Part shown: piece after piece, positions 18,383 to 64,000 of the stretch
Position numbering within the stretch: position 1 is the first letter of the stretch
How the letters are laid out: the number at the start of each line of letters is the position of its first letter
Assembly (NCBI GenBank): GCA_900617105.1
Contig: UYFQ01000852.1
Span: 62,001-126,000, forward strand
Source of the DNA: Hydrurus foetidus
Lineage: Eukaryota
Length of the DNA: 64,000 nt
Direction of reading: 5' to 3'
Notes under the pieces: generated by a model
What the model was told of the DNA's origin: nothing
Database searches by the model: none
Seen by the model: only the letters and a program-made list of their open reading frames with translations
Made by a program: the position numbers and the translations under genes

Positions 18383-19137
18383 TCAGTGGAGCTGCAGGAG
18401 CAGGAAGGCGGCGAGAAACCGACCACCGTGATCAGGCCGATGAAGGGCTGGGCGTTCTCGAACGCCTCGGGGATCATCGCCCGGCGAGCATCGCCAGAAC
18501 GGCGCCGGCGGCGAAGGCGAGGATCACCGCCGGGACCTGGTCTGAGGCCGAACTGAGGACCAGCGCGCCAGCGCCGCCGCCGCGGCGGTGATGACCGGTA
18601 TCCCCAGCCAGACCGTGAAGATGTAGCGCTGCGAACGACCCGCCAGCCGCATGCCGGACGCGCTGGAAAGGCCCTGAGGGATGTTGGCGAGAAAGAAGCC
18701 CGCGACCACGCCTGCGGCGAGCTGCCCCGCCGAGCAGCGACAGGCCGATGACCAGGGCCTCGGGAATCCTTGTCCAGCACGGCCCCACCGCGATGGCGAG
18801 GCCGCTCCCCTTCTGGTCCGTTTCGCTGGGCTGGCGACGCAGCCCCGCACCGGTTGTGGTTCTTCGCGCCCCGCTTGGCGAGACGCCAGTTGATGAAACT
18901 GAACACCCCGCCCCCGACAAGAAGGCCGGCGACGGCGGAGAGGGTCCCACGCGTGTAGGCCTCCGTCATCAGCTCGACGGCGACCACGGCGATCAGAACC
19001 CCGCCTCCGAACCCCATCACGCCGGCGATGACGCGGTGGGACAGCCGGTTGTAGAGGGTGACGGCGAGCAGGGCGCCGATCGTCAGGCCGCTGGCCGAGA
19101 ACAGTCCCACAGGCCGGCTGACGAACACAGGCATCAT
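18383..19137 (-). CDS. ZIP-family metal transporter
   Basis: Hydrophobic; MGFGGGVLIAVVAVELM, IPEALVIGLS, FLANIPQGLSS, AFAAGAVLAML, MIPEAF. Confidence 0.85.
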
Positions 19138-19230
19138 ATCTTCCCGGCTACAGGCGAAAGAGCCGGTTGTCGCGGCCTCCTGGTGCGAACGCGCGAGGCG
19201 CTCCAGACGTCTCAGAACGGTTCTCGCCCT

Positions 19231-19738
19231 TTAACACGGACGATGTCTGTCGACCGGGCAGTCGTCGCAGCGTGCGCGGTCGCAGAGGCGGCAGGTCGCC
19301 CAACCTCTGGGCGTCGCCGAACACCGACGACAGGATGGCGTCGGCGGCCCGCTCCAGGGCGACGCGGTCCTCGACGGAGACCTTGCCGAGGAGGTCCGCC
19401 AGGGCGGCCCTGCGAAGTCCGAGGAGCTCGGCGCGCTGGACCTGACCCTGTGCGGTGAGGGTGACGTGAACCACGCGACGATCTGAGGACGACTGCGATT
19501 TCTCGACCAGGCCCTGATCTCCGAGCCTCTCGACGACCCGGACGGCTCCGGCATGAGACAGCCGGAGGATCTGGCGATCTGACCGATCGACATCCCCGGC
19601 TCATGGCCGATGGCGATGAGTGCGGCCGCTGTTTGACCGCCTGCGTTGAAGGCCTCTGCGATCGCCCGTCGAACCCGGTCGGACACCGCCTGCGAGAGGG
19701 CCGAAGGTGTTGATCAGGCGATCAGAGGGGTCGTCCAT
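19231..19738 (-). CDS. MarR-family regulator with a C-terminal Cys cluster
   Basis: AAALIAIGHEPGMSIGQIAR; wing D.RVVHVTLTAQG; tail CRLCDRARCDDCPV. Confidence 0.8.
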
Positions 19739-19752
19739 TGCGCGGACTCCGG

Positions 19753-19771
19753 TATATGCGTCGTGCATATA
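19753..19771. promoter_or_regulatory. MarR-type operator TATATGC-N5-GCATATA (copy 1)
   Basis: TATATGCGTCGTGCATATA, 14 nt upstream of the first MarR ATG. Confidence 0.75.
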
Positions 19772-20026
19772 ATCAGGCGCGGGAGATGTCGAGGGCCTGC
19801 CGTCAAGAGGCCCCAGGTAGGAACCGCGAACTACCCGGCGGACTTGACCGCATGCGGATGATCTCAAGAGCTGCGTCGATAGCTGCCAGGTATCGGTATT
19901 TTCTGCCGGCTGGTGCGCTGGACCCTTTTCCGCGTCTCAAGCTCGATAATAAATCCAAAGTTGTATTTAAATACAAGGTCTTGACGGTTGTTCGCGCAGT
20001 CTGTAGCCGCCACTGTCCGCTTGCCG

Positions 20027-20045
20027 TCTATGCTTGGCGCACATA
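20027..20045. promoter_or_regulatory. MarR-type operator (copy 2, degenerate)
   Basis: TCTATGC-TTGGC-GCACATA just upstream of the second MarR ATG. Confidence 0.6.
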
Positions 20046-20056
20046 TAGACAGCACG

Positions 20057-20575
20057 ATGGATGGACCTCGAGCTCGAAATATATTCGGCGCGTTCGCACT
20101 GATGATCAGCGACGACATCGTTCGTGCCAGTTCATCGCGGGCCTGAAGCCGGACCCGCCGCCTCGGCGCTGGCCTTGCTCGCACAAGCCCGGGCTCGATA
20201 GGCATGCTGGCGGTCGGGGTGGGTCTGTCACACGCCGGGACCGTTCGCCTGGTGGATCGATTGTCGGCAGAGGGTCTGATCGAGCGCCGGGAGCATCTGA
20301 CGGATGGGCGCGCGCGGTCCCTCTATCTGACGGCGACCGAGAAGTCGCCAGCGGCGAGGTGTTCGCCTCGCGATCAGGTCATCGCCGAGGGCTGTCGATC
20401 CTGGAGCCGGGCGAGTTGAGGATCCTGAGCGACATCGCCGAACGCGTTCTGCGCGATCGCCTGGAAAACCTCGGGCACTCGTACCGCATCTGCCGCCTGT
20501 GCTGCTACGCGGGCTGTAATGAACTGCCCGTTGACGCCGAACTGCTCGAGCGAGGGTGGACCGCGAAGCGACTGA
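20057..20575 (+). CDS. MarR-family regulator with a C-terminal Cys cluster
   Basis: GLSHAGTVRLVDRLSAEGLIERR..DGRARSLYLT; tail RICRLCCYAGCNE(C)PV. Confidence 0.85.
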
Positions 20576-20590
20576 CGAGGCGTAGGTTCC

Positions 20591-21594
20591 TCAGGAAGGG
20601 TGACGACGACCTTCGAAGCGGAAACGCCGGCCTTCAACGCCTCCAGAGCGGGTTGGCATTGCAAGGCCATGGCCACGACCTTCGCCGGGGCGCGGACGAA
20701 TGTGCGCGAGGCGAGCGCTTGCGGCAGGAAGTCGCGATAGATCATCGGACCGACGTCGTCGTCCTGAGGCTCGTCCGGAGATATGCGTCGCCTCGATGCC
20801 CGCAGGCCGTGACTCGGGCGTCAGGGTCGCCGCCACCGGCGCGAGCCGTCGCATCTCGCGACGACGGCGAAACAGTCGTCCATACTGCCGGTGGCGTGCA
20901 ACGTCCCGGCCAGACGGCGCCCGCAGCGCCGCGACGACGTCGTCCACCAGGGTCGGGCTCGCGTGGTCGAGAACCTCGCCAGCGCCGAGGGTATTCAACA
21001 GGCCGGCGTTGCGCGCCGAGGCGACGGCGACGCAACTGTAGCCCGACGCCACAGCCAGCTGGATGGCGTTGCAGCCGACGCTCGACGATCCGCCCCAGAC
21101 CAAAACCACCTGGCGCGCGACCGGCGCGATGCGAGGGTGGCGCCAGCGCCAGCTGCGTCCGTCCATAGAGGCCGCCCGCGGCGGTGCCGAGGCCAAGGGG
21201 AAGGACGGCGGCATCCGTGAAGGCCATGTCGTCGGGGATCGGCGCGGCCAAGAGCTCCAGCACGATGGTGTGGTGCTGGAAGGCCCTGCGCGGGTTTCGT
21301 TGACGGTCGTACCGACCGCCTGTCCGGACCCGATCGCCGACCTTGAACCGATCGACGGCGCTGCCGACCGCCGCGACCTCCCCAGCGACATCGCTGCCGA
21401 GGATCGCCGGATATTCGAGCCAGGGCAGCAGGGCGATCTCCTGCAGGATCCAGTCGATCGGGTTGATGGCGATAGCCGCGCTGCGGATCAGATCTCGTTA
21501 GCCGCCGGCTGGGGAGCAGATCGGAGACGCCGATCCGCAGCGGATGGCCCGGTGCGCACTGCCAGGCGGCCTGATTGATCACGGTCCCGCCCAT
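20591..21594 (-). CDS. Zinc-binding alcohol dehydrogenase/enoyl reductase family
   Basis: AINPIDW, AAVLPLGLGTAAGGLY, VLVWGGSSSVGCNAIQLAVASGY. Confidence 0.85.
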
Positions 21595-21684
21595 CGCCCA
21601 ATCCCTCGATCAGCCATGACTAGCGCGCGTTTCTGCGCGAAAAAGACCATAAAGCGGGATGGTCTGGTGACCTGAAGGGAAACA

Positions 21685-22591
21685 ATGATGGACGGTGGCC
21701 ACTACGCCGAGCTGCGGGCCTTCATGGCGATCCACGAGCACGCAGCTTCCGGGACGCGCGTTGCGCCTCGGCGTCACGCCCTCGGCCCTGGTCGGACCCT
21801 GCGTCGCCTCGAGGATCGCCTGGCGTTGCGCCTGTTCAACCGGACGACACGCAGCGTCCACCCGACGGAGGCAGGCCGTCCTTCCCCGCCAGCTCGCACC
21901 GGCCATTGCCGGTCTGGACCAAGCGCTCGGAGATGCGCTCGCGCTTCCGCGACGATCCCGTCGGAACGATCCGCCTGGAATCTTCCGCGAATGGCGGCGG
22001 AACGATCGTAATGCCACGCCTGCCGCTCTTCAACGCCCTGCACCCGGCGTGCGGCTGGGAATGGTCGTCGACGATGGTCTGACCGATGTCGTGGCGGAAG
22101 GCTTCGATGCGGGGATAAGGGCGGCGAGCGGCTGGCGCAGGACATGGTCGCCATACGGCTGACGCCGCCCTACCGGTTCGCGGTGGCGGGTTCTCCGGCC
22201 CTATTTCGCCAGGCATGCACCTCGGTCACGCCGCACGACCTGTCGGGACATCCTTGCCTCAAGTATCGCTGGGCGACGACGGGCAAGCTCGAGCTGGCGC
22301 TTCACCGGGCGAGGCATTGTGACGGTGGGGGTCGAGGGACCGCTGGTCGCCAACGACACCGCATTCCTCCGGGACGCGGCGGTCGCCGGCATGGGACTCA
22401 TCTTCCTGCCCGAGGCGGCTGTAGAGACCCATCTCGCCAGCGGGGCGCTCGTCCGTGTCCTGGACGAATGGTGCAAGCCCTTCCCGGCTTCTATCTCTAC
22501 CATCCCAACCGGCATCAGACTCCCGCCGGCGCTGCGCGCCTTGATTTCGTTCTTCAGGCCGAGAACACACACCCGGCTGGCGGGATGGTGA
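21685..22591 (+). CDS. LysR-family regulator (CrgA-like), divergent from the dehydrogenase
   Basis: [45 protein letters not shown]. Confidence 0.88.
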
Positions 22592-24358: not shown

Positions 24359-24447
24359 CGAACCTTCAGCGGGTCCGGCGGCTGCGCTCGATTCTCGCGG
24401 ACGAGACGCGCAGTCGCTGACCGGTGAACGTCATCTCGCCTCCTTAT

Positions 24448-24502
24448 TATATGCGGCGCGCATATAGACAAGCCCGCCAATATTATATGCGTCGCGCATA
24501 CT
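24448..24502. promoter_or_regulatory. Two tandem MarR-type operators (copies 3 and 4) between the divergent osmC-hydrolase and LysR genes
   Basis: TATATGCGGCGCGCATATA (24448-24466) and TATATGCGTCGCGCATACT (24484-24502). Confidence 0.8.
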
Positions 24503-24565
24503 TCTTGGTCCGCTTTCCGTGGGCATGGCGGTAGAGGCGTCTGTCAGGGGATGGGCCGAACGGCT

Positions 24566-25429
24566 ATGGAACTCACTCAGGTCAGCTATTTCATCAACCT
24601 CGCCGGAACGCTGAACTTCACGGCGGCGGCGGATGAGCGGCGTGTCACAGCCCAGTCTGACTCGCGCCATCCGCCGCCTGGAGAGGAGCTCGGCGGACCG
24701 CTGATTCATCGCGACGGGAAGAACAGCCGCCTGACCGGCCTCGGTCAGGACGTCGAGGTGGAGTTCCGGCGCATGATGGCGGCGATGAAGAGCGTTCGCG
24801 ATCACTCGAGAACTGGGCGATGGGCCGGCACCGCGTGCTGGACGTCGCCGTCGCCCACAGCATCGGACCGGAGATTTGCGGCCTTCTTCGAGAGCATCCT
24901 GTTGGCGGCGCCATCGATTGAAATCAGGCTACATTCGCTTCCAGTCGGGTGAGACACCTCGAAATCCTGTCCGGAAAATACCACGCCTGCATTCTGACGC
25001 GCGAAACCCGACCGGACCGCAAGGTGGATGTGCACTCTCTTTTCAGGAGCGTTTCGTCCTCGGATGCGCCGAGCATCGTCCTCTGGCGGCCCGCGAGATC
25101 GTCCGCATTGAGGACCTCCTCGCGTTTCCTTTCGTCGATCGGCTGAACTGCGAGTTTCGCGACCGGATTCTCGATCACTTCCGGCACGGAGACACGCTCA
25201 TGCAGCCCGCTTCCGGTCGGATCGCGAGGACTGGGTGCAACGGGTCGTCGCCGACAGCGACGCCGTCTGCATTCTCCCGAACGCTCGGCCACTGCCCCGG
25301 CCTAATCACCCGGCAGATCGAAGGCCTGATCCTGGAGCGGGAGATCGTGATGGCGACGGTGTCCGGCTCACGGCGGCGGTCGAAATCCCCAAGATCGCGC
25401 ACCTGGCGTCCGGCTACGCGTGGAGCTGA
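24566..25429 (+). CDS. LysR-family regulator, candidate activator of the redox genes
   Basis: MELTQVSYFINLAGTLNFTAAA..VSQPSLTRAIRRLEEELGGPLIHRDG; FVDRLNCEFRD. Confidence 0.88.
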
Positions 25430-25450
25430 ACGAGGCAGCGAGCTTCACAG

Positions 25451-25487
25451 CTATGGAAACTATAGGCGTCGCGTATTGGCTAAATCG
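25451..25487 (+). promoter_or_regulatory. LysR/OxyR-like box (copy 1) upstream of msrB
   Basis: CTAT-GGAAACT-ATAG-GCGTCGC-GTAT-TGGCTAA-ATCG. Confidence 0.75.
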
Positions 25488-25576
25488 ACGAGGCGCTGCG
25501 ATACTCGACGGCACGACTGACCAGGTAAGCTGAGCGTAGTGTATCCGGCCCTCTAAACAAGTTATTGGAGACCAAC

Positions 25577-26026
25577 ATGAAGTTCGAAAAGTCGCAAGCG
25601 GCGATCGACAAGCTGACCCCTGAGCAACGCCGGGTCACCCAGAAGTCGGGCACCGAGAGGCCCTTCACCGGAGAGTACAACGACAACAGGCGGCAGGCAT
25701 CTACGTCGACATTGTATCGGGAGAGCCGCTGTTCGCCTCCACGGACAAGTTCGATTCAGGGACGGGCTGGCCGAGCTTCACAAAGCCCATCATTGCGGCG
25801 AACGTGAACGAGGTGCGCGACAGCGCGCACGGCATGGTGCGGACCGAGGTCAGGTCGGCGCACGCCGACGGTCATCTCGGCCACGTGTTCCCCGATGGTC
25901 CCAGGGACAAGGGCGGCCTGCGCTACTGCATCAACTCCGCCTCCCTCCGCTTCATCCCGCGCGATGAAATGGAGGCCGCGAGCTACGGCGACTATCTCGA
26001 ACAGGTGAAGGAAGCGGTATGCATGA
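25577..26026 (+). CDS. msrB: Peptide-methionine (R)-S-oxide reductase
   Basis: [50 protein letters not shown]. Confidence 0.95.
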
Positions 26027-26538
26027 GCGCGCAGTTCTCGCGGGCGGGTGTTTCTGGGGCATGCAGGATCTGATCCGCAAACAGCCCGGCATCGTCTCGA
26101 CCCGTGTCGGTTACACCGGCGGCGATGTTCCGCACGCCACCTATCGCAATCACGGCACCCATGCCGAGGGATCGAGATCATCTTCGACCCGGCGGTGACG
26201 AGCTACAGGACGTCCTGGAGTATTTCTTCAAGATCCACGATCCGACGACCAAGAACCGCCAGGGCAACGATGTCGGCCTCTCCTACCGATCGGGGATCTG
26301 GTACGCCGACGAGGAACAGAAGCGCATCGCGGAGAGACGATCGCCGACGCGGACGCCTCCGGCCTGTGGGCTGACAAGGTGGTCACCGAGGTCCAGCCGG
26401 TCGGCGAGTTCTGGGAGGCCGAGGCGGATCATCAGGACTACCTGGAGAAGCGGCCGAACGGCTACACCTGCCACTTCCCACGGCCCGACTGGGTGATCCC
26501 CAGGCGTCAGACTGCAACCGGATCCGCAGCGGAATAGG
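26023..26538 (+). CDS. msrA: Peptide-methionine (S)-S-oxide reductase (copy 2)
   Basis: [51 protein letters not shown]. Confidence 0.93.
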
Positions 26539-26669
26539 TTTCGCGGCCGTTGCATCCGCACCGGTCGGTTCGCAATGTCGATGACCGCATAACAGGACGA
26601 TGCGGTCATCGACCCGGCCTTGACGAGGAGCGTCGTTTCCGTCCGCCGCAGCACCAGGATCGCAGAACC

Positions 26670-27373
26670 ATGCCGGACCTCTCGTCATTTCCCATCACGC
26701 AGCGCTGGCCGGCCGCTCATCCCGATCGTCTGCAGCTGTACGCCTTCCCACGCCCAACGGCGTGAAAGTCTCGATCATGCTGGAAGAGACCGGCCTGGCC
26801 TATGAGCCCCATCTGATCGACATTTCGAAAGACGAGTCCAAGGACCCGGCCTTCGTGTCCTTGAACCCGAACGGCCGCATTCCTGCGATTATCGACCCGC
26901 ACGGGCCACACGGCGAACCCATCGCGGTGTAGGAATCCGGCGCGATCCTGGTCTACCTCGCCGAGAAGACCGGCCTGTTTCTTTCGAGTGCGTCCGCCCA
27001 ACGCTACGAGACCCTGGCCTGGGTGTTCTTCCAGATGTCGGGCATCGGCCCGATGTTCGGCCAGCTCGGCGTCTACGTGCGCGGACCCGGCAAGGATTTC
27101 GAGGACAAGCGGCCCCGACAGCGGTTCGCCGATGAGTCCAACCGCCTCCTGGCCGTTCTGGATCACCGGCTGGAAGGCCGCGACTGGATTGTCGACGATT
27201 ACTCCATCGCCGACATCGCCACCCTCGGCTGGGTCAATGCGCTTGCCGGCACGTACAACGCCGGCGATCTGGTGGATTTCGACGCCTACGCAAACGTGCA
27301 GACCTGGCTGCGCCGCGACCTGGCCCGACCTGCGGTCCAGCGCGGCCTGCTCATCCCCGCGAGGCCGGCATGA
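26670..27373 (+). CDS. Glutathione S-transferase (YfcG/YghU-like)
   Basis: [53 protein letters not shown]. Confidence 0.9.
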
Positions 27374-28332
27374 GCGTCATCGCCGCATACTACTACAGGG
27401 ACGGCAGACGCATCCGGGAGATCGGGATCGACGAGCGCCTGCCGTTGGACGAGGGGCGCTCGGGCTTCTGCTGGATTGCGCTTCATGACCCTGCCGCCCA
27501 TGAGCTCAGCGCGCTCCGCAAGAGCTATGACCTCCATCCTGGCGGTCGACAATGCCATGCACGCGCTGTGCCCGCCCAAGCTCGAGGTCTACAACGGCGA
27601 ACTCTACATCGTCGCCCAGACCGCCGAACTGGTCGGCGACGGCATCCGATACGGCAAGACGGCCATATTCACCGGCCACAACCACCTGATCACCGTCAGG
27701 CACGGCAACGGCGGAGCACTCGGGAATCTTCGAGAGCAACTCGAGGGCTCGCCCATGCTCTTCGGTCAGGGTGTCGACTACGTGCTGCACGCTGTTCTGC
27801 ATCGAATCGTCGACCAGTATCTGCCCATCTTCGAGATGATCGAGGACGACGTGCTGGAGATGGAGAAGCGGTCGCTGGACGACGTTCTCGACCGGGCCGA
27901 CGTCGCGCGGATCTTCGCACTGAGAGGCGAACTCACGCGCTTCCAGCGTACGCTCGGCGGCATGGTCGAGGTCGTCAGAAAGCTCGTCCGCGGGCATTTC
28001 CTGCATCAGCGAGGAGGTGAGGCCGTATTTCAACGACGTCGCCGATCATGTCGATCGCGTGCAGTCCATGGTCGACGGCCTTCTTGTGAATCTGTCGTCG
28101 GTCTTCGAGTTCAGCAGCCTTCTGGAGGCGCAGAGGACGGGCATGAGCACCCGCCGGCTCGCGGCCTGGGCGGCGATCTTGGCGGTCCCGTCGGCGATGG
28201 CGGGGATCTACGGTATGAACTTCACGCACCTGCCGGGCCTCAACTCGGCGTACGGATGGCTCGTTGTCCTCGGGCTGATGGCGGCGACCTGTGTTCCTGT
28301 TCGTGCGCTTCAAGAAGGCCAAATGGCTATGA
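27370..28332 (+). CDS. corA: CorA-family divalent cation transporter
   Basis: FCWIALHDP, RPYFNDVADH, AGIYGMNF signature. Confidence 0.9.
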
Positions 28333-28426
28333 ACGCCACCGCTCTCGCCACTCGCCGTCATCCGACGGACGACAGCCCGCCGTTTGCCGAGGCGGGCTCA
28401 GATCAACGGCAGACAAAGGTGAAGCC

Positions 28427-29013
28427 ATGACATCCCAGATTACCGACGTCATCGACGCAGTGCAGTCGTTCGTCGCCAGGGCTACGACCGCGAATACCGC
28501 GTCAAGGACGGCCAGCTCATCGATCTCGAACTCGGATCGACGCTCGAGGCCTGCAACGAACGTCGATGCGGCCCTGCGCCTCGAAAGCGGGATGACGCCG
28601 AAGACGCCTCCAACATCTACGCGATCACGGATCCCGCGACCGGTCACAAGGGCCTGCTGATCGACGCCTTCGACGTTTTCGACGAGCTCTGTCACGCCGA
28701 CTTCTCCGAGCGGCTCGTGGCGAACCGGGAAACAACGCAGACCGGCGGCCAAGACGTACCGATGAAGTACGGGCTGCGCAAAATCTACAAGGCCGAGTTC
28801 GAGCAGGACACCGCGCGTTACATCCTGCGCGAGGGCTTTCCGGATTTCCCGCCCTGTCCGTTCGGCCAGGAGTACAGCATTCTCGGCTTCGACACCGCCG
28901 AGCAGTCCTATGTCTGGCTGGTCACGAGCATCATTCGTGATTCCCGGCTGATCAGGGTTCCCTACCAGGGCGAAGATGTCATCGACGAGGACCAGAGCGA
29001 TCCACGGCTGTAG
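28427..29013 (+). CDS. Hypothetical two-domain protein
   Basis: Stitched MTSQITDVIDAVQSF..GYDREYRVKDG...DASNIYAITDPATGHKGLLIDAFD...KYGLRKIYK...FPDFPPCPFG. Confidence 0.65.
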
Positions 29014-29083
29014 AGTCCCGACCCAGGCGATCACGGCCAATCCGGCCCGCCATCCTGAAACCCAGAAACACGACGAGGAAACG

Positions 29084-29529
29084 ATGGACTGGAACAAAGA
29101 CCACATCCGCGAGACCATGCTTTCGCTGGAGACGGCCGCGCTGAACAGCGCTCGCGAACATTATCAGGACTATGTCTGCGACGCCCGGATCGATCGATCC
29201 GAACCGAACGACAACCACGTGCATTCGCAGGCTGAGATCGCGAGCGACTTCGCTGAATCGCTTGACGACACAATCCATGACCAGGCCGACAAGCTGGAAA
29301 CGCTGCGGACCATCGATTTCGGTCCCAGGTCGACCGTGGGCGAAGGCGCGGTCGTCAAGCTGTCCGGCCGCTGGTTCGTGATCGCGGTGTCGACGAACCG
29401 GTTCAAGTGTCAGGGCGCGAGTTCATGGGCATTTCCACCATGGCCCATCTACGAAGCGATCGAAGCGCCAAGGCCGGAGAGGTCATCGAGTTCAATGGCC
29501 GCACCCTCACCGTCGAGGACGTCGGCTAG
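29084..29529 (+). CDS. Hypothetical protein with GreA/GreB-like architecture
   Basis: Helical N-terminus, then TVGEGAVVKL..WFVIAVS and a C-terminus resembling the Gre C-terminal domain. Confidence 0.55.
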
Positions 29530-29559
29530 GCCCCGTCCTCGACGACCGACGGGCGGCGC

Positions 29560-30795
29560 GGCTCGCTCTGCGACGCCTCCTTCATCCGGATCATCGCCTC
29601 AAGGGATCCGGTGATCATGGGCGTGCCGGACAAGGATGGCTCTCGCCCGGATGGGGCGAGGCGCCGTCCTGCGGGCAAGGGCCAGCACCGCCAAAATCGC
29701 GAGGACAGCCGCCGCATGAGGAACAGGCCGCCGGGGCCGACGAGGTTCATCACGGCGCCGCCTATGATCGGCCCGGCGGCTGTCCCGATCCCGTTGAGCA
29801 GCAGAAGCCCTCGCGCGGTGCCCAGCAGCCGATCGGGGGAGGTCGTCGTTGGCGACGGCGAGACACAGGGAATAGATCGGGATGCCGAAGCCGCCGAACA
29901 GAGCCCGCGACCAGGAGCAGCGGCAGGCCTGGACCGCCAAGGCCACGCCGACGGCGGCCACGGCCGACGCCAGGGCGCCGGCGATTACGACGTTCCGGGA
30001 CACGCGGTCCGAGAGCCAGCCGAGGGGCCACTGCAGGACAAGGGTTCCACCCAGAACCGCGGCCATGAAGGCGGAGATGCCGCCTACATCAAGGCCGATC
30101 CTCTGGCCGAAGTTCGGGCCCATGCCCCAGAACCCGCCGATGGCCAGTCCGGCCAGGAAGGCGCCGGCCGCAGCGAGGGGCGACATGACGATAAGGTCCC
30201 TGAACGCGACCGGCTGCTGTTTCACCTCGGCCGGCGGACGTGTGGGCAGGAGGGTGATCGGAACCACCGCCGCCGAGATCAGAAGCGAGACGATCAGGAA
30301 CAGTGTCAGGCCCGCGGGCGGTGCGACGTTGAGAAGCCCTGCCCGACGGCCCATGACCCCATCGACACGACTCCGAAGATCGACAGCAGCTGGCCGCGCG
30401 TCGACGGCATGGCATGGGCGTTGAGCCAGCTCTCCGTCGCCAGGATCATGCCCGCGTAGGCGAAGCCTGTGACGAGGCGAAGCGGCATCCAGGCGACTGG
30501 CTCCACGACCGCGCCGTGGACCAGCGCGGTCATCGACGCGATCGCGGCGAAACCGGCGAAGGTCCTGACATGGCCGACCGACACGATGATCCGGGGCAGG
30601 ACGAGCGCGCCGATCGTGAAGCCGGCGAAGTAGAAGGACATCATCGCGCTGATCGCGCCGCCGGAAATCCTCCTGGCCGGCCCTCACGATCAGGAGCGTG
30701 CCCAGAAGGCCGTTTCCCAGCAACAGGGCGGCGACGCTCAGCAACAGGCCCGCCACCGGCGCGAGCACGAGGCCGCGCCTGGAGGCCGCCATCAT
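29560..30795 (-). CDS. MFS transporter (YcaD-like)
   Basis: LLLLGNGLLGTLL, SVGHVRTFAGFA, ILATESWLN, QWPLGWLSDR. Confidence 0.88.
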
Positions 30796-30880
30796 GGTCT
30801 CGACCGACCGTTTCATGTCAAGAACGGGCGCAAGGCCTGATGTGCTGCGGCGCGGATCAGGACAGGGGACCATCGCATGG

Positions 30881-31523: not shown

Positions 31524-31560
31524 GACCATAGCCAATAGCGGCCCGACATAGTTTCCATGC
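31524..31560 (-). promoter_or_regulatory. LysR/OxyR-like box (copy 2) upstream of the redoxin
   Basis: Minus strand GCAT-GGAAACT-ATGT-CGGGCCG-CTAT-TGGCTAT. Confidence 0.65.
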
Positions 31561-34613: not shown

Positions 34614-34627
34614 AGGGGATCGCCGAT

Positions 34628-56757: not shown

Positions 56758-58967
56758 TCAACGCTTCAACAGCTGGAGATCGCCTGCAGGCTGCGCCGGC
56801 GTTCCATCGGGTGTCGCCGCTTCTTCTGTCTCAGGCTCTGAGTAGCGCCAGAGCGACCGAAGGATCGGCGCTTTCTTCGAACAGCGACACCGTCCAGCCC
56901 GCCGCTTCCGCCAGTTCCGTGACCGAGGCGCGGGTGTATTTGCGCGAGCTCGGTGTGGATGGTCTCGCCCCTGGAGAAGGCGATCACCGTGTCGCCGATG
57001 GCCACATGTTGGTCGCGGATCGAACGCAGGTGCATCTCCATGCGCGATTCCGCCGGATTCCACAGCGCCAGATGCTCGAAGGCGTCGAGGTCGAAGTCGG
57101 CCCAGCTCGGCATTGGCCCGAACGAGCAGGTTCCTGTTGAAAGCCGCGGTCACGCCCTGGGCGTCGTCATAGGCGGCGACCAGCAGTTCGGGCGCTTGAC
57201 CAGATCGACGCCGAGAATGAACAGCGAGCCATCGTCCAGCCGGGCGCGCGACCTTGAGGAACTCGACCGCGGCGTCGCGATCCAGATTGCCGATGGTCGA
57301 GCCGGGGAAGAAGCCGATGCGACGACCCCGGCCCAGTTCCGGCAGCGCCGGCAGGTTCAGGAAATCGCCGACGACCGGCACGACCTCAATGGAGGGATAG
57401 GTCGGAATCCGCTCCGCCGCCTCGTTCAGGGCGTCTGAGCTGATGTCGATGGGGATATAGGTCGAAGGGCCGGGGCCGCGTCCAGCAGGATGCGGGTCTT
57501 TTCGCTGGCCCCCGAACCGAACTCGACCAGAACGGCGTTGTCGCCGAAATCCTGCGTCAGGCGCGGGCCAGCGCCTTGAGCAACGAGGCCTCCTGCCGCG
57601 TCGGATAGTATTCCGGCAGGCGGGTGATGTCTCGAAAAGGCGCGAGCCCTCGGCGTCGTAGAACCATTTCGGCGAGACCGCCTTCTGGGGTTTCGACAGG
57701 CCGGCGATGAGCTCCGCGCGGAACTCCGCTGTCTCGTCATTTTCGTCAGCCCTTGATGGGTCGGCGACAATGTCTTCGGCAAGCCTGAGGCCCATGAACG
57801 CCCACCTTGATGCGGATAAAAGAACAGTGATAGGTCGCGCGGGCGTGGCCCGGCGGCGTGGCGAAGCATGACCCGCGCAGGATCATCTGATTGGCCATGA
57901 ACTTGCCGTTGTACTCGGACGCCGTGCCGTCGGTCGGGCGGAACCCGGGATAGGGAGCGTAGGCGCTGGCGGTGTGTTGCCAGACCTCGCCGAACAGGTT
58001 GGAGAACGGCGCGGCGTCGGTGACGGCGGCGTGTTCCCACTCGGCCTCGGTCGGCAGACGCTTGCCGGCCCAGCGCGCGTAGGCGTCGGCCCGTAGAAAC
58101 TAATGTGACGAACAGGGCCGATGGATCGACCGGCGCAGCGCCGGCAAGACCGAAGACGGACCAGCCGGCTTCCGCCGCATGCCAGTACAGCGGTGCAATC
58201 CACTGCTCGGCCTTCACCGTGGCCCAGCCATCGGCGAGCCAGAGCTCGGGACGGGAATAACCGTCGTCCTCGATGAAGCGGATCCAGTCGGCGTTGGTGA
58301 CGAGGTCATTGGCGAGGGTGTATGGGCGCAGCAAGGTCTGGTGCGCCGGGCCCTCGTTGTCGAAGGCGAAGCCCTCGCCATCATGGCCGATGGTGATCAG
58401 ACCGCCGTTGAGACGGGTCACGCCGCCGACGGAGGGCTGGACCGGCCTCGCGAGGCTCGATGTCATAGGCGGCGGGATCGAGCGGCGACCGCGACATCAG
58501 ATAGAGCAGATCCATCAGGAACAGTTCCTGATGCTGCTGGTCGTGATGCAGGCCGAGGACGAACAGGTAGCGGTCCGCGCCCGAGGTCAGGCCACGTGAC
58601 AGGCGGTCGATCATGCGGCGGTCGATCTCGCGGCGGTAGGCGAGGACATCGTCGAGGTTGGGGCGGGTCATCAGGCCGCGCTCGTGCCGGTTCACCCGAT
58701 GGCCGAGCGCTTCGTAGTAGGAGTTGAACAGCTGCTGGAAGCGCGGATCTACGGGCTGATATCCCGGCTCGTTGGACAGGATCATCGCCTCGAAGAACCA
58801 GCTCGTATGCGCCAGATGCCACTTGCCCGGGCTGGCGTCGGCCATCGGCTGGGCGGCGAGGTCCTCGGCCGAGAGACCCGCGGCCAGTTCGGTCATGCGA
58901 TCGCGGACGGCGCGGTAAGCCGCAACGTCGTTCGACCAGGGCGACTGAAACTGCGGAGCTCGCTCAT
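56758..58967 (-). CDS. egtBD: Fused ergothioneine biosynthesis protein EgtB (sulfoxide synthase)-EgtD (histidine trimethyltransferase)
   Basis: Egt[52 protein letters not shown]. Reads in frame through MGLRLAED into Egt[46 protein letters not shown]. Confidence 0.88.
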
Positions 58968-59053
58968 GATCGCGACGGGCTTTCGGCAACCGTCCGCCAA
59001 TCAGCAAAGGCCGCCTGGCCGTCCTGTCGCGCGATTGCGTGGCGGCTCTCAAC

Positions 59054-59522
59054 TCAGGCCCTGGCCAGGGCGCTGGCCGCCTTCCCGTCATACTGGCCGC
59101 CGAAGCTGGTCTTCAGGTGCGCCATGATCGTCCCGACGTTGGCCCCGGGTTCCTGGCGGAAGTCGTTGATGGCCTCGCGCAGTTCCGATTCCGTCATCTG
59201 CTTCGGGCCATAGGCGGACAGGATCGCGAGTTCGGTTTCAGCCGCCCCGACCCGCTCGTCCACCTTCGACACATCGCCACCAGCCTGATCAGACGCGCGC
59301 GCTCGGTCGCGAGGTTCTCCAGCGTCAGCTTCGTGTTCTTCGAGAACTTCGCGACGGTTGCGACAACCTTCTCGTCGGTGACCTCCGTCACGCCGCGCTT
59401 GAATTCCTCGGTCGTGATCTGGGTCGCCTCGCCGATCAATGTGGTCAGCACATCAGCCTTAAGGCGGTCGCCCAGCTGCGCGCCGCCAGTTGGTCCGCTT
59501 TGATTTCGTCGAGTAAATCCAT
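59054..59522 (-). CDS. GatB/YqeY domain protein
   Basis: MDLLDEIKADQLAAR, LTTLIGEA, ELAILSAYGPKQM, IMAHLK..GQYDGKAAS. Confidence 0.8.
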
Positions 59523-59765
59523 ATCCATATCCCTTCAGTTCATCTGTTCGATCCTGCCCGCCAGGCTTGAATATGGGCGGAGACGGTCAGGCTCGGAAGA
59601 AGCGTCGCCTTCCAGCGGAGACGCGTCCTGATTTGGTCTGCCCGCACGCCGCTGGCCATCGGGTGGACGACGACGCTGCTCGGCCGTCGCAGACCTCCGG
59701 ACCGGCATGGACCTCCGGCGCAGAACCGCGGATGCGTTCGCCGTATCGATCATCGCGGTCCACGC

Positions 59766-60730
59766 TCACTGCGGCATCTCGACGTGGCCGCCGAACCCGA
59801 GGCGCATGGCCGACAGCAGCCTGTCGCCGTAGGTGTTCTCGCTGCGCGAGCGATAGCGGGCATATAGCGCGGCAGAGAGAACATTGGCGGGCACGGCCTC
59901 TTCCATCGCCGCCTCAATGGTCCAGCGGCCCTCGCCGCTGTCGGCCACCTGCCGGTGAAATGCTCCAGCGACTTGTCCCTGGCCAGGGCCGAGGCGCTGA
60001 GGTCCAGGAGCCAGGAACTGATCACGCTGCCGCGCCGCCAGACCTCGGCGATGTCGGGCAGGTCGAGGGTGAAGCGTTCGTCCTCAGGCAGGCGTTCGGA
60101 CATCTTGTTCTTCAGGATGTCGAAGCCTCGGCATAGGCCTGCATGAGGCCGTACTCGATGCCGTTGTGGACCATCTTGACGAAATGACCGGCTCCGGCGG
60201 ACCGGCGTGGATATAGCCCTCTCGGCCCGGTCATCGGGGCGTCGCGACCCGTGGTGCGGACGATGTCGCCATAACCGGGGCCAGGGTCTCGAAGATCGGG
60301 TCGAGAGCTCTGACCACCTCGGCGTCTCCCCGATCATCATGCAGTAGCCGCGCTGCAGTCCCCAGACACCGCCGGAGACGCCGATGTCGACGTAGTCGAG
60401 CCCCTGTCGCGCAGCGCCTTCGCACGACGGATGTCGTCCTTGTAGTAGCTGTTGCCGCCGTCGATGAGGATGTCGCCGGGTCTGGCGATGCCCGCGATCT
60501 CGTCGATCGTCTCTTCGGTGAGGGCGCCGGCCGGCGCATGACCCAGTAGATCGCCTTCTCCCCGAGCCTGGACCGCATGTCCCTGAAGTCAATCGAGGCG
60601 ATGGCTTCCCTGCGAGTTCCTGGACGGGTTCCGGCGAGCGGTTATGCACCACCACCTCATGGCCGCCGCGGATCAGGCGGCGGGCGATGTTGACGCCCAT
60701 GCGGCCGAGGCCGATCACACCGATCTTCAT
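59766..60730 (-). CDS. gnd: 6-phosphogluconate dehydrogenase, decarboxylating (short type)
   Basis: [59 protein letters not shown]. Confidence 0.92.
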
Positions 60731-60776: not shown

Positions 60777-62439
60777 TCAGGCGAAAGCGCCTGAAAGATG
60801 GCGTGGCGGCGGTCTTCGACCGCGGCACGGCATCGTCGGCGTCACGCGCGAACATGATCCCAGACCTTGGAGATCACGACCGAGCCCTCGCCCACTGAAG
60901 ATGCGACCCGCTTTACGGAGCTGGCGCGGACATCCCCACCGCGAAGACCCCGGGTTCCGAGGTTTCATAGGGCGAGCAACCCCTACCTGTTCCCCGGTCA
61001 GGACAAAGCCGCGGGGTCGAGGTCGACAAGCCCCGAGAGCCAGGCGGTATTGGGAGCCGCGCCGACCATCACGAAAACCGCGCAGGACTCGATCATGCGG
61101 GTCGAGCCGTCATGCACGTCGCGGATCGTGACCGACTCGAGCTTGTCCGAGCCGTGAAGGACGCTGACTTCAGTCCCGTATTCTATCGTGATCGCCGGAT
61201 CTGCATTCAGCCGGCTGGACAGGTAACTGGACATCGACGACGCGAGCGAGTTCCCGCGAACCAGGACGCGGACATGTTTGGCGGTTCGGCTGAGAAACAT
61301 CGCAGCCTGGCCGGAGTTGCCGCCGCCGATGATGATGGCCTCGGTGTCCCGGCAATACCGCGCCTCGCTCGGTCGCCGCGTAATAGACGCCCGCGCCTTC
61401 GAACGCTTCGAGCCGATCGATCGGGGAGCCGGCGATACTGGACGCCGGTCGCCACCACGACGGCCCGTCCCCGGACCCGCTGTTCGTTGTCGAAGGTGGC
61501 GCAGAACGTCTGGTCTTCCAGACGTTCCAGTTTCACCACCCGCCGCGGCATTGCGAAACGCGTGCCGAACTTCATCGCCTGGACCTCGCCGCGCCACACC
61601 AGATCGGCGCCGGAGATTCCGGTCGGAAGCCCATGTAGTTTTCGATCCGGCTCGACGCGCCCGCCTGCCCTCCACCGCGACATCCTCGATCACCAGGGCG
61701 CGAAGCCCTTCGGCTCCGGCGTAGACGCCTGCCGACACGCCGGCGGGGCCCCGCCGACGATCAGGACGTCGAAGGCCTCATCGTCGACGAGATCGTGGTT
61801 GAGGCCGAGCAGGCGGGCGACCTTGTCGGGCGTCGGGTCGGCGACGACCACATCGCGGCCGAAGATCACCGCCGGCTCGTCCGGTGAGACCGAACAGCTC
61901 GTGGCGACAGCCGCCGCCTCCGGACCCGAGCGCGTAGGACATGTACGGCAGACGGTTGCGGCTGGCGAAGTCCGCGATCCGGCGGACCGCCCGGTCCTCG
62001 TCCTCGCCGATCAGAACAAGCGTGCCGTAACGTCTGTCGACCTGCTGGCCGTCGCGCCGCGAGCACGGTGATGACGATGTCGGACATCTCCGGGATCTCG
62101 GACATCAATCGCAGCATGTCGATCCGCGGCACTTCGATCACGGTCGTGTCGGTCACGGCTCGCATCGGCATCAGCCAGCTGCCGCCGTTCAGGAACGAGA
62201 TCTCCGCCATGAACTGGGTTGGCCCGAGCGTGGATGCGATATGGTCGTCCGTGAAGGGGTTCACGACCTCGATCTCGCCTTCCTGGACGTAGACGAAGCG
62301 GTTGGCCGGTTCCCCGGCACGGGCGACGAACGCGCCTGAGGATAGCGGCGGACCGTGCCGACCGCCTGCAACGCCGCGACGTGCGTCACCGAAAGGGGAC
62401 GCGTTGCATCTCGCGCAAATCGCGCCCGATGGATTCCAT
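60777..62439 (-). CDS. Cyclic-nucleotide-binding-domain thioredoxin-reductase-like flavoprotein
   Basis: N-terminal FVYVQEGEIEV..LGPTQFMAEISFL; DVLIVGG.PAG, SSRIENYMG, ATGVQYR, IIGGGNS.GQAA, VFVMVGAAPNT, GDVR. Confidence 0.85.
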
Positions 62440-62593
62440 GCGTCGTGCCCTTCTTGCCGCCTGAGCGACAGTCGGCCAGGCGGCCTGACTTCGCAAGACC
62501 AAGCTTGGCGGGGTTCCTGATTATATTACGCGGTTCACGTATGGCGGCAGACGTTGCTGAATCCGCGTAATGCAATAGGTGATCTCAACTTGG

Positions 62594-62630
62594 GTATGGA
62601 AGCTATGTCTCGACGCTATTGCTTCGACAA
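62594..62630 (+). promoter_or_regulatory. LysR/OxyR-like box (copy 6), about 155 nt upstream of the TrxB-like gene and inverted relative to it
   Basis: GTAT-GGAAGCT-ATGT-CTCGACG-CTAT-TGCTTCG, close to copy 2. Confidence 0.55.
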
Positions 62631-63050
62631 CTCCCGCCCGCCGCTCCTGCACCACGAAAGCCATTCCGACCGAGCGCGGCGCCGTCAGGGCGAAGCCGAA
62701 CTGGGCGTAGAGCCGGTGCGCTTCGCCGTCGGCCATCAGGCTGACATGGCCCTCCGCGCCGTGGCGCGCAGGTGATCGACCAGCGCCCCACGATGGCCTT
62801 GCCCAGTCCACGCCCTGATGCTCGGGAAGGACGGCGATATCGACCACCTGAAAGAAGAGGCCGCCATCGCCGACCACCCGGCCCATCCCCACAGCTTCGC
62901 CGTCCTTGCGGATGACGACGGCGAAGACGGTGTTGGCAGGCCGGCGGCTGCGCCTTCAGCCGTCTTGGGTGTGAGGCCCGCCCTTATGCGAAGTCCGAGA
63001 TAGTCTTCCTTCGCAGGGGTTCCGACGTGAAGCGTGTAGTCGTTGGTCAA
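62616..63050 (-). CDS. GNAT-family N-acetyltransferase
   Basis: GMGRVVGDGGLFFQVVDIAVLPEHQG, VSLMADGEAHRLYAQFGF. Confidence 0.88.
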
Positions 63051-63078
63051 AGGTCCCTGCGATCTGAAGGCGTTGCAC

Positions 63079-63696
63079 TCAGGCGGCCGCGCGATCGATC
63101 TCTGGATCGAAGCGCTGGAGGAAGTCCTCGCGCGTCACCTCGCCCAGGTCCACCATCTTGCGCCGCCGGCCGCGATGACGGTGACGTCGGTGATGCCGAT
63201 CACGTTCAGGATGAGCCGCAGATACTGGGTCGCGAGGTCGCGATCCCGGATCGGCGAGCCTTCGGTATAGATGCCGCCGGAGGCCATCAGAACGGTCGCC
63301 GTCTTGCCGGACAATAGACCTTTGCCGTCGAAGCCGAGCGTCAGCCCTTGCGCACGATATGGTCGATCCAGGCCTTCAGCGCGGCCGGCACATTGTAGTT
63401 ATAGACCGGGGTGGCGATGACGAAGTGGTCGGCGGCGAGCAGTTCGGCCACCAGTTCGTCGGACAGCCGCATCGCCTCCTTCATCTCGGGCGAATGCTGC
63501 TCGGACGGCGTGAAATAGGCCTGGAGCCACGGCGCGTTCACGAACGCCAGGTCGGTCTCCATCAGGTCGCGGATGACGATCTCTCCGTCAGGGTGGGCCG
63601 TCCGCCACCTCGCGACGAAGCGACGCGTGAGATTGCGCGAGATCGAATGATCCCCGCGCGGGCTGGTCTCGACGACGAGCAGTCTGATCTGGTCAT
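63079..63696 (-). CDS. azoR: FMN-dependent NADH-azoreductase/quinone reductase
   Basis: [55 protein letters not shown]. Confidence 0.9.
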
Positions 63697-63703
63697 GGGG
63701 ATT

Positions 63704-64000
63704 TCAGGACGCGGCCGGAAGACGACCTCGCCGGGCTCGCCCGGCGCAGAGCCGGCGGCGACCATCAGCGGCAACAGATGATCTTCGTGCGGCTGCGCCG
63801 CGCGGGCTTCAGCGCCTGTTCCCAGGCGACGAGGGCCTCGTCGCGCCGGGACGGATCGACCATCGCCTCGCGCAGCCAGGCGTCGAACGCCTCCGCCGCC
63901 GGATCAGGCGCTGACCGTCGCCGAAGCCGCGCATGTTGTGATAGGTCTGGCCGCTTCCGATGATCAGCACGCCGTCGTTGCGCAACGAGGTCAGCGCCCG
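63704..64000 (-). CDS. DODA/YgiD-type extradiol dioxygenase (3' part; continues beyond the window)
   Basis: LRNDGVLIIGSGQTYHNMR, AFDAWL, WEQA, PHEDHLLPLMVAAG. Confidence 0.82.

Follow-up and report, generated by a model that had tools for sequence, protein, structure and literature searches.

A modular redox-repair island carried by an ICE-type element of Brevundimonas-type bacteria, probably directed against chlorine-type oxidants

Introduction

The msrB-msrA-yfcG-corA-orf8 'anti-oxidative' cluster has been described as a passenger of IncP-6 KPC plasmids and of blaAFM modules, where, as far as the available parts of these papers extend, it comprises four or five genes without regulators or tests (PMC4785139, PMC8421773, PMC9984417). 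ICE-betaox of Legionella pneumophila, a 65-kb element with a tRNA-Arg site and att repeats of 43 bp that carries msrAB twice together with a homologue of ahp, was shown, according to the part of the report at hand, to increase bleach and H2O2 resistance (PMC4010831). In the accessible sections of the literature, OxyR and RclR-RclABC of Escherichia coli are Cys-based sensors driving dps, glutaredoxin and reductases, and SigF-MsrPQ-MrpX of Azospira includes MrpX, a peptide rich in methionine, as well as a periplasmic Mo enzyme, MsrP, with a heme membrane partner, MsrQ (PMC7464077, PMC4436054).

Here we analysed a window of 64,000 nucleotides (contig UYFQ01000852.1, positions 62,001 to 126,000) containing an island of redox genes. 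The island core has the identical genes of the plasmid cluster in the identical order, but the island is the 56-kb cargo of an ICE and additionally has MarR/LysR operators, a Mo enzyme, its cofactor pathway, egtBD and a CysRS. Compared by description only, ICE-betaox shares the tRNA-Arg site, att repeats and msr genes, whereas its host belongs to a different class, its msr genes form a small operon, and the available description names no Mo enzyme, moa/mod, egt, cysS or MarR/LysR pair, all of which the island has. Like the E. coli systems, the island has a Cys-based sensor and an RclA-like flavoprotein, but it is mobile and pairs a one-Cys LysR with a four-Cys MarR; its Mo protein is of the MsrP fold, with a sulfite-oxidase-family domain and a Cys ligand, but is predicted to be cytoplasmic with a soluble FAD reductase, and the island has no MrpX-like peptide. 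Tn4371-family ICEs carry their cargo after trbI and use a non-tRNA, AT-rich target. The element in genome G059 recalls that family in RadC, ParB, a DUF3363 relaxase, TraG and TrbB-I; in contrast, the cargo of the present element follows the relaxase, its trb genes are located upstream in the opposite orientation, and it combines a tRNA gene as target with a P4-like integrase. The preliminary description recognised no named island, which holds for the whole, while the core DNA was already known; what had not been described before is the complete regulon, the supply of cofactor and a second CysRS clade whose catalytic motifs are altered in the clean copies.

Results

The window is a frameshift-ridden copy of an element of which clean versions occur in genomes G001, G059 and G202. 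Its DNA alignment with G202, spanning 46,453 columns, was broken by 588 gap openings, so that genes could not be read directly; they were called on the clean copies in G001 and G059 and transferred to the window through DNA alignments (Table 1). All gene families listed in the preliminary description, including three msrA genes, msrB, GST, GrxC, the redoxin, OsmC, AhpD, Dps and the Mo genes, were recovered by this route. The proposed left edge at 18383 was also right, the sequence common to the carriers starting at 18328-18350, whereas the right edge of the proposed 45-kb extent was merely the end of the window: the element continues for about 9 kb with an RclA-like reductase, a peroxiredoxin and TrxC, and terminates at tRNA-Arg(ACG), giving a cargo of about 56 kb. 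The island is a recombination mosaic.

Table 1. Positions in the window of the features of the element, transferred from the clean copies.
Feature	Positions	Strand	Remark
ICE backbone remnant	1..8657	+	strawberry-notch helicase 3' part, SSB, DinB-like polymerase, YAcAr/SLOG protein, relaxase
RlxS/DUF3363 relaxase	7633-8657	+	below RlxS cut-off
Exchangeable slot	8809..18228	.	outside redox cargo; protein of unassigned family, PLD-domain protein, SF1 helicase, AbiEi/AbiEii-like pair, GIY-YIG
YeeE/YedE remnant	18222-18323		34 codons
ZIP-family transporter	18383..19137	-	first cargo gene
MarR 1	19231..19738	-	C-terminal CxxC-x4-CxxC
Operator A	19751..19773	.	TATATGCG-N3-CGCATATA palindrome
Operator A	20025..20047	.	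before MarR 2
MarR 2	20090..20585	+	C-terminal CRLCC-x3-CxxC
Quinone-oxidoreductase/ADH-like protein (-), LysR 1 (+)	20591..22580		plasmid homologue annotated zinc-binding ADH family
msrA1	22620-23121	-	single Cys
Alpha/beta-hydrolase-OsmC fusion	23152-24358	-	precedes msrA1
Operator A x2	24446..24504	.	between osmC and LysR 2
LysR 2	24566..25429	+	OxyR-like
Operator B	25450..25485	+	before msrB; STAT-N7-ATAG-N7-STAT
msrB-msrA2-GST-corA, 196-aa and 149-aa proteins of unassigned family	25565..29529	+	cluster of IncP-6 and blaAFM plasmids
msrB	25565-26017	+
msrA2	26061-26537	+
GST	26670-27373	+	YfcG/YghU-type
MFS transporter, CxxC redoxin	29526..31350	-
CxxC redoxin	30881-31350	-
Operator B x2	31526..31695	.	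divergent
Mo protein, 201 aa	31894-32497	+	sulfite-oxidase family, PF00174; no export signal
FAD/NAD(P)H reductase	32490-33231	+	PF00970/PF00175; overlaps Mo gene
Thiolase, GAF-HWE histidine kinase + receiver, grxC, DUF427, 88-aa protein of unassigned family	33366..37944	+
GrxC	36949-37216	+
Operator B (38001), dps, msrA3, metallo-beta-lactamase-fold hydrolase, Anbu-type protease	38001..41009	+
Dps	38170-38608	+
msrA3	38698-39246	+
Operator B (43988), NADPH:quinone-reductase-like, GlcG/HbpS, DUF1330, Rid	41466..44023	-
Rid family	41466-41852	-
GlcG/HbpS heme protein	42274-42710	-
CPA1 Na+/H+ antiporter	44545..46163	-	TIGR00831 above cut-off
Second cysS, aldehyde dehydrogenase (aldH)	46441..49315	+
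cysS	46441-47894	+	passes TIGR00435
Operator A	49443		before AhpD-like gene
AhpD-like protein	49526-50066	+
modE-moeA-moaCBEDA	50162-54571	-
modABC	54621-56658	+
egtB-egtD fusion	56831-58967	-
YqeY	56831..60730	-	between egtBD and gnd; limits of the block
gnd	59766-60730	-	NAD+-type 6-phosphogluconate dehydrogenase
AzoR, GNAT, weak operator B (62593), DODA/YgiD dioxygenase	60842..64000	-	dioxygenase cut by window end
cNMP-TrxB	60842-62439	-
AzoR	63079-63690	-

Subsequently, the ends and the transfer functions of the element were examined. In G001, a 46-bp direct repeat of the tRNA-Arg 3' half, lying 67 kb from tRNA-Arg, marks both ends; neither falls inside the window. The same tRNA-Arg end is found in G059 and G202, and in G202 a 489-aa tyrosine integrase, likewise outside the window, adjoins the att repeat on a contig separate from the cargo. 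The backbone remnant is 95% identical to G059:C1:42070-50887, and the slot following it is common to the window and G001 only, with different genes in G059 and G202. A conjugation cluster had been expected downstream but was found upstream: the cargo-bearing contig of G059 encodes TraG together with TrbB, C, D, E, L, F, G and I, and TraG, TrbB and TrbE were found in G202. Because the relaxase is short (379 aa, spanning positions 70-401 of the 654-position RlxS model with a score below the cut-off) and G001 retains just the first codons of the integrase and has lost the T4SS, present self-transfer is only putative.

The clean carriers G001, G059 and G202 have the same gene order and show mostly 95-100% protein identity to the window, and G205 holds a diverged variant (80-96%). 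Between carriers, island DNA is 96-97% identical versus 74-85% for the flanking core genes, which implies recent spread. The LysR of the island was found in one of 401 family genomes, G001 itself. With one or two candidates scored per genome, two of the 201 genomes of the genus contained the entire 44-64 kb block. The carriers also keep their own core cysS. These results support the proposal of one mobile unit rather than core chromosome. Across 32 genes compared with G205, dN/dS was 0.045-0.32. Taken together, a single unit, its ends, its spread between species, its conserved operators and purifying selection on it are demonstrated.

Two operator families had been proposed to recur from 19.7 to 62.6 kb. 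Patterns derived from the clean island copy gave five matches each, against 0.07 (A) and 0.00 (B) expected; conservation in other genera is the stronger test, and there the operators precede the same genes (of the 146 matches of B, 57 are followed by msrB and 48 by the Mo enzyme gene). The flanking DNA of G001 (about 115 kb) and the 57-kb G059 backbone contained none. Both families are real, but the site at 62593 is weak, scoring 19.8 versus 30-57, and is oriented away from trxB. Furthermore, no operator precedes cysS-aldH, moa/mod, egtBD or gnd, so that these genes are physically linked but only putatively co-regulated, and the argument for one unit from co-regulation is weakened. Operator A is a palindrome expected for four-cysteine MarR proteins, with MarR 2, whose Cys motif is kept in 52 of 53 close homologue alignments, as the putative binder. 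LysR 2 is the putative activator at the OxyR-type box of operator B: its best PDB match is OxyR 4x6g (E 4.6e-14), and its Cys, kept in 66/66 close alignments, aligns with position 199, the peroxidatic Cys199, while no Cys stands at the position of the resolving Cys208.

The Mo protein has an invariant Cys78 in 57 sequences and matches the sulfite oxidase family and YedY/MsrP in fold. It lacks the dimerisation domain, lies far below the SorA/SorT cut-offs, scores 36 versus 207 with PRK05363 and shows no hydrophobic signal at its N-terminus; pairing with an NAD(P)H flavin reductase suggests reduction. The idea that the island carries its own cofactor supply was borne out, since modE-moeA-moaCBEDA and modABC lie on it and the only moaA and only PF00174 protein of G001, its sole Mo-enzyme found, are island-borne; no xanthine-oxidase or MOSC family was found in that genome. 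As to a separate core moa in the host, G059 and G205 have another moaA, whereas G001 has none off the island. Within the genus, moaA scored above cut-off in 56 of 201 genomes. A perchlorate reduction island was rejected: cld and pcr/clr are absent among the called genes, and the sole PF00384 match of G001 is NuoG.

In 37 full-length related loci we counted MarR in 37, msrB in 37, msrA in 36, GST in 35, corA in 34 and the Mo enzyme in 26, and 5 of 13 sibling modules lie directly 3' of trbI. The msrB-msrA-yfcG-corA region matches 370 plasmid records (about 79% DNA identity to the plasmid copies), and the Mo enzyme alone 110. Its 196-aa protein matched no known fold. Sibling islands carry ArgRS (5/15), GAPDH (3/15) and RpiA (2/15), and in one plasmid gap and rpiA flank operator A. 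In clean island copies the second CysRS reads HIGCSSM and KMAKS, as against the HIGH, HIECSAM and KMSKS motifs; the window read is canonical, within a divergent patch.

Discussion

We consider it fairly probable that the window holds the cargo of an ICE whose insertion site in Brevundimonas/Caulobacteraceae is tRNA-Arg(ACG), and that this cargo is one of the large islands in a modular family built on one two-tier redox regulon, with a chlorine-type oxidant as the likeliest stress. An oxidant that reacts with thiols, in all likelihood HOCl or chloramine, would oxidise the Cys cluster of the MarR repressors; these would come off operator A, and osmC-msrA1, ahpD and the gene for the LysR would be derepressed. 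Upon its own oxidation, this OxyR-like LysR with its one Cys may then switch on the operator B promoters, which serve msrB-msrA-GST-corA, the redoxin with the CxxC motif, the Mo enzyme and its flavin reductase, dps-msrA3 and the operon of quinone reductase, glcG and rid. Methionine sulfoxide would be repaired by the Msr enzymes, recycled by Grx, GST, TrxC and TrxB, while AhpD-like and RclA-like enzymes with ergothioneine would remove the oxidant and Gnd would add reducing power. The moa/mod block may make the Mo enzyme usable in a genus most of whose members do not have the cofactor, and the second CysRS probably stands in for an oxidant-sensitive housekeeping enzyme. It counts against this account that hosts possess egtBD and msrAB of their own, and G059 and G205 another moaA.

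It is doubtful that the system is confined to the 19-44 kb core, with cysS, aldH, moa/mod, egtBD and gnd as chromosomal DNA hitch-hiking at an ICE hotspot. Such an origin would suit the operator-free promoters noted above, the mosaic structure, the confinement of most 44-64 kb genes to Caulobacteraceae variants (none of the 13 sibling regions read outside Caulobacteraceae has moa, cysS, aldH or ahpD) and the similar moa-mod blocks elsewhere in G023 and G189. Nevertheless, in G205 the core has kept its linkage to cysS and moa/mod at dS 0.3-0.5 and dN/dS 0.05-0.24, operator A precedes ahpD, gnd (5/13), TetR-SDR (7/13) and trxB and azoR (2/13) lie beside the core in other siblings, and 4 of 65 loci have an egt of different lineage.

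The choice of reactive chlorine as the likeliest stress is inferred from gene content and habitat. The flavoprotein beyond the window end has as its best PDB match 6kgy (E 1.9e-72), which we take to be E. coli RclA, and carries the CxxxxC motif as CVNTGC; it scores 326 against the NF040477 cut-off of 740 and passes PRK06370 instead. An RclC-like DUF417 protein (score 94, cut-off 275) occurs in 9 of 15 sibling islands, 3' of operator A in one plasmid, and was not found in the present island. Distal DNA was present in 12 studies, 9 of them in engineered water or food settings, a count of carriers only that possibly includes the source of the window or G001 itself. It seems unlikely that the same mobile regulon was selected by peroxides or by thiol-reactive electrophiles in general (quinones, aldehydes, oxidants from plants or UV), with tolerance of chlorine as a side effect. 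Electrophile detoxifiers are indeed abundant (AzoR, two quinone-reductase-like proteins, GST, DODA, aldehyde dehydrogenase and, in G001, an epoxide hydrolase), LysR 2 resembles OxyR, and the core is carried by several Sphingomonas with strain names that hint at leaves instead of chlorinated water, which counts against chlorine. However, chlorine chemistry agrees better with the four Msr genes, with the proteins resembling RclA, RclC and AhpD, and with the absence of catalase and SOD among the called island genes, as far as the consulted parts of the literature go (PMC7464077, PMC9751292). Handling of reactive sulfur or sulfite is most improbable. The sulfite-oxidase fold, with oxidation of sulfite by the Mo enzyme, and the YeeE/YedE transporters of siblings, with the remnant in the window, would accord with it, and MarR proteins, here Cys-rich, can reportedly sense sulfane sulfur. 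Against it stand the missing dimerisation domain, the SorA/SorT scores and the reductase partner, and neither sulfide:quinone reductase nor rhodanese is among the called genes.

A bolder and rather unlikely possibility is an undescribed disinfectant-survival regulon of engineered waters, combining protein repair, replacement copies of oxidant-sensitive enzymes (a CysRS clade with changed residues beside the zinc-binding Cys; ArgRS, GAPDH and RpiA in siblings) and a cytoplasmic Mo enzyme-flavin reductase reducing chloramines or sulfoxides; chlorination would then co-select carbapenemase plasmids bearing the core. The surprise is limited, as ICE-borne bleach tolerance through msrAB was already shown in Legionella. 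The parent system, regulators and operators are now given for the cluster listed beside blaKPC and blaAFM. The four-cysteine MarR sensor, the one-cysteine OxyR-like activator, the small cytoplasmic molybdoenzyme with its own cofactor pathway, the second CysRS, motif-altered in clean copies, and the 196-aa protein are biochemical targets. Judged from its genes, the cargo assembles dozens of oxidised-protein repair genes on a mobile element of water-dwelling Brevundimonas-type bacteria, probably against chlorine-type disinfectants, and by sequence matches a fragment of this gene set rides hospital antibiotic-resistance plasmids. It can now be tested directly whether disinfecting drains and water with chlorine selects for mobile DNA, resistance plasmids included.

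Annotation of the window

Frameshifts prevented any useful calling of ORFs on the window itself. When the window was aligned with the genome G202, which bears a clean copy of the island, 588 gap openings were counted in 46,453 columns, indicating that the window is an unpolished read. Annotation was done on the clean copies in the genomes G001 and G059, and the genes were then transferred to the window. All the gene families listed in the preliminary description were recovered in this way. Records with a 90-100% identical LysR carry Brevundimonas titles. Two patches diverging from all three clean copies reflect either polishing contamination or gene conversion. G001, G059, G202, and G205, the last with a more diverged copy, served as stand-ins for the host when core copies were checked.

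Coordinates of features in the window and in related loci
Feature	Position	Remark
Alignment with G001:C3	window 8635-64000	about 94%
Alignment with G202	window 18328-64000	single piece
Operator A, palindrome	window 19751, 20025, 24446, 24482, 49443
Operator B, OxyR-like spacing	window 25450, 31526, 31660, 38001, 43988, 62593	62593 weak
Exchangeable slot	window 8809-18228	PLD-domain protein, SF1 helicase, AbiEi/AbiEii-like pair, GIY-YIG
YeeE/YedE transporter remnant	window 18222-18323	34 codons, left edge of cargo
Unnamed 196-aa and 149-aa proteins	window 28427-29529
Anbu-type proteasome-like protease	window 40260-41009	on the island
Divergent patches	window 46500-47100, about 52000-53000	11-21%
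82-base direct repeat, 82% identity	window 49350-49431, 50305-50386	before ahpD; inside modE
G001 cargo beyond the window	9 kb	LysR, cytochrome c, ferritin-like protein, AhpC/TSA redoxin, flavoprotein disulfide reductase, DUF427, TetR, SDR, NADP oxidoreductase, trxC
att repeat	L008 16523-16850, L167 9940-11692
Interruption between trbB and trbC, G059	L012 15347 to L013 11539	HipA pair, AAA ATPase, large unknown genes
Second msrB-msrA pair, G001	L164 5241-6199	72% identical; unrelated site beside RadC and toprim remnants
Additional genes inside the plasmid sibling L183 (Sphingomonas paucimobilis)	L183 5416-7363, 28419-30176	gap, rpiA, argS, dipZ, VPGUxxT thioredoxin-like protein

Mobility and ends of the island

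The proposal that these genes form one mobile unit rather than core chromosome was upheld by several results. The 44-64 kb block was whole in two of 201 genus genomes, G001 and G059, with one or two candidates scored per genome (the 201-genome tallies take in the unpublished genome G123, on which no claim depends), and it was also borne by G202 outside that sample. Near-identical copies of the Mo protein were likewise found in 2 of 201 genus genomes, and the central LysR in G001 only among 401 family genomes. The cargo in G001 ended at tRNA-Arg(ACG), and a 46-bp copy of the 3' half of this tRNA lay 67 kb away. A tyrosine integrase was located within the matching repeat in G202, on a contig separate from the cargo; in G001 the integrase was reduced to its first codons and the backbone was lost. 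TraG and TrbB-I were encoded on the cargo contig of G059, upstream of the window start by 8-37 kb and not downstream as had been suggested. Among the carriers, identity near the tRNA was 96-97% inside the island vs 74-85% in flanking genes. On these grounds we regard the island as almost certainly mobile.

The relaxase was 379 aa long vs a 654-position model. Substitution rates among the four copies swung from 0 to 16% per kb, indicating that the alleles recombine. A clean empty site was not found: the tadE flank of G001 did not adjoin tRNA-Arg in five other loci, and the ggt-tRNA-Arg site of the genome G203 was filled by other DNA. The att repeat matches each host's own tRNA-Arg 3' half, despite an 18% difference between the hosts. 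In G205 (loci L177 and L178), a segment of 8.6 kb matches G059 at 99.9% identity, and the same distal genes also occur there as an 81-92% variant; the two represent either two elements or a binning mix. The second msrB-msrA pair of G001 suggests another ICE relic. The exchangeable slot, replaced in G059 by three other large genes, possibly serves anti-phage defence.

Operators and regulators

Two operator families had been proposed to recur from 19.7 to 62.6 kb, and both proved conserved across genera. On the island, A sites lie between 19751 and 49443 and B sites between 25450 and 43988, with a weak further B site at 62593. Neither family was picked up by a generic search for repeats. The best 80 of 93 LysR matches were kept and gave 78 loci (65 at 70% identity or more), in which 204 matches to operator A were counted near LysR (100), osmC (69), and MarR (51), with 41 unassigned; one site may count for two genes here and for operator B. 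The 146 matches to operator B in the same loci were near msrB (57), the Mo gene (48), the quinone reductase (30), and the redoxin (15), with 14 unassigned. Thirteen loci with distant LysR relatives only gave one A match and two B matches. Matrices built from 74 non-Brevundimonas loci gave no hit in the G001 flanks (about 115 kb) or in the G059 backbone, a test that is not fully independent because the seed patterns came from the island. On the island, no operator site was found ahead of cysS-aldH, moa/mod, egtBD, or gnd. Operator A was also found on plasmids, between gap and rpiA in L183 and ahead of an RclC-like gene in L011.

The closest solved relative of LysR was OxyR. LysR has a Cys at the position of OxyR 199, conserved in all 66 close alignments, and none at 208; the Cys cluster of MarR was kept in 52 of 53 alignments. 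From their positions, operator A is predicted to be the MarR site and operator B the LysR site.

Island and host copies

G001 and G059 possess a core cysS, beside a gene that is presumably folE by its sequence, and its protein shares 75% and 82% identity, respectively, with the island CysRS. Two cysS matches were observed in 5 of 201 genomes, one of them probably a split gene. The moaA gene was above the cut-off in 56 of 201 genomes, and G059 and G205 had a second copy. In G001 (99% complete), the sole moaA and the sole PF00174 protein were both on the island, and in G001, G059, and G202 gnd of the island type was confined to the island. The PF00384 match of G001 was NuoG, and this genome yielded no member of the xanthine-oxidase or MOSC families. 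G001 owns egtBD, aldH, and a further msrB-msrA outside the island; together with the second moaA of G059 and G205, this indicates that many cargo genes duplicate what the host already has instead of bringing in something new. These results do not bear out the objection that the 44-64 kb genes are single-copy core genes in conserved synteny.

Conserved core and sibling islands

The LysR loci, from the best 80 of 93 matches, occur in Sphingomonadaceae, Hyphomicrobiales, and beta- and gammaproteobacteria. Among their 37 full-length loci, four of which are Brevundimonas and whose 10-kb flanks cut off distal genes, MarR and msrB were present in 37, msrA in 36, GST in 35, corA and the 196-aa protein in 34 each, the 149-aa protein in 33, the CxxC redoxin in 30, the Mo protein in 26, and OsmC in 24. 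Wider regions of 13 non-Caulobacteraceae genomes, counted by eye, contained the Mo-reductase pair (13), dps (10), TetR-SDR (7), gnd (5), trxB (2), and azoR-DODA (2); the module directly followed trbI in five, and none of these regions had moa/mod, cysS, aldH, or ahpD next to the core. G205 has cysS and moa/mod joined to the core, with 80-96% identity. The dN/dS values were 0.045-0.32 vs G205 (32 genes) and 0.06-0.27 vs the genome G206 (31 genes). Extra genes in 15 siblings were DM13 (10), RclC-like DUF417 (9), ArgRS (5), GAPDH (3), RpiA (2), and YeeE (2). Plasmid records matching window 15-39 kb numbered 370, the best at about 79%, and 110 plasmid records encode the Mo protein.

Enzymes and unnamed proteins

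The model of the Mo protein (pLDDT 75.4) showed a sulfite-oxidase fold, with a TM of about 0.62 against both YedY/MsrP and sulfite oxidases. Cys78 was invariant, and neither an export signal nor a dimerisation domain was present. As its gene overlaps that of an FAD/NAD(P)H reductase, the Mo protein is a putative cytoplasmic reductase. MsrB and MsrA1 have a single Cys each, in keeping with recycling through glutaredoxin and glutathione. A scarcity of Met or Cys in island proteins was ruled out (Met 1.94% vs 2.04%, Cys 0.82% vs 0.81%).

The clean island CysRS carries the motifs HIGCSSM and KMAKS. Both changes were found in 15 of 120 homologues and neither in 105, and the variants formed one clade with a support of 98 in a quick tree of 60 of the 120 homologues and seven own rows. 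The variant motif occurred in 2 of 201 genus genomes and in G202. The window's own CysRS is canonical and lies within a patch 12-21% divergent from all alleles, where the changes are codon-coherent toward another CysRS. The likelier reading of this patch is that cysS reads of another organism contaminated the consensus, but gene conversion could also explain it. A persulfide-synthase role has been ascribed to CysRS; the lysines tied to it do not separate island from core copies, an outcome that speaks neither for nor against such a role of the second CysRS.

The 196-aa protein has invariant cysteines. Its model was weak (pLDDT 63.9), with only the N-terminal half well tested; no fold match exceeded Z 3.4, and only unnamed clusters were found in Atlas. 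The 149-aa protein looks GreA-like by eye.

Selecting oxidant

A redox-repair role of the island is highly probable, and for chlorine as the main selecting stress the evidence is about evenly balanced. For chlorine, we counted four Msr genes, RclA-, RclC-, AhpD-, and Rid-family proteins (the structure 6kgy is presumably RclA), and the lack of catalase or SOD among the called genes. Passages of PMC7464077 and PMC9751292 tie families among the island proteins to HOCl. However, the RclA-/RclC-like matches were below the cut-off, the core occurs in Sphingomonas with leaf-type names, many island genes are general electrophile detoxifiers, and the habitat count of the runs had no control. In that count, the distal 10 kb was present at a share of at least 0.79 in 14 of the 24 runs listed, from 12 studies: wastewater (3), drinking water (2), and bioreactor, sludge, food, food production, lake, bovine gut, and organism (1 each, among the runs listed). 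In the drinking-water run X3, the stretch from trxB to CPA1 was covered almost completely and with uniform depth. Runs considered as RNA had shares of 0.07-0.16 or were of presumed RNA type, and X18 yielded scattered pieces of 150-370 bases.

Relation to known clusters

Integron msrAB cassettes were reportedly the subject of Gillings 2009. Such cassettes are mentioned in a passage of PMC8490738, and ICE-betaox in one of PMC4010831. A plasmid cluster appears in passages of PMC4785139, PMC8421773, and PMC9984417; PMC8421773 names it an 'anti-oxidative system', and these passages contain no functional trial of it. No msr genes feature in PMC5460862. Among openly accessible full texts, none was found to describe the island as a whole, its regulators, or the Mo pair, although an annotation may exist in a supplement. 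The roles of the Mo enzyme and the second CysRS and the link to chlorine are putative. The island itself is real ICE cargo with a real conserved regulon, and it is a large, new version of a known type.
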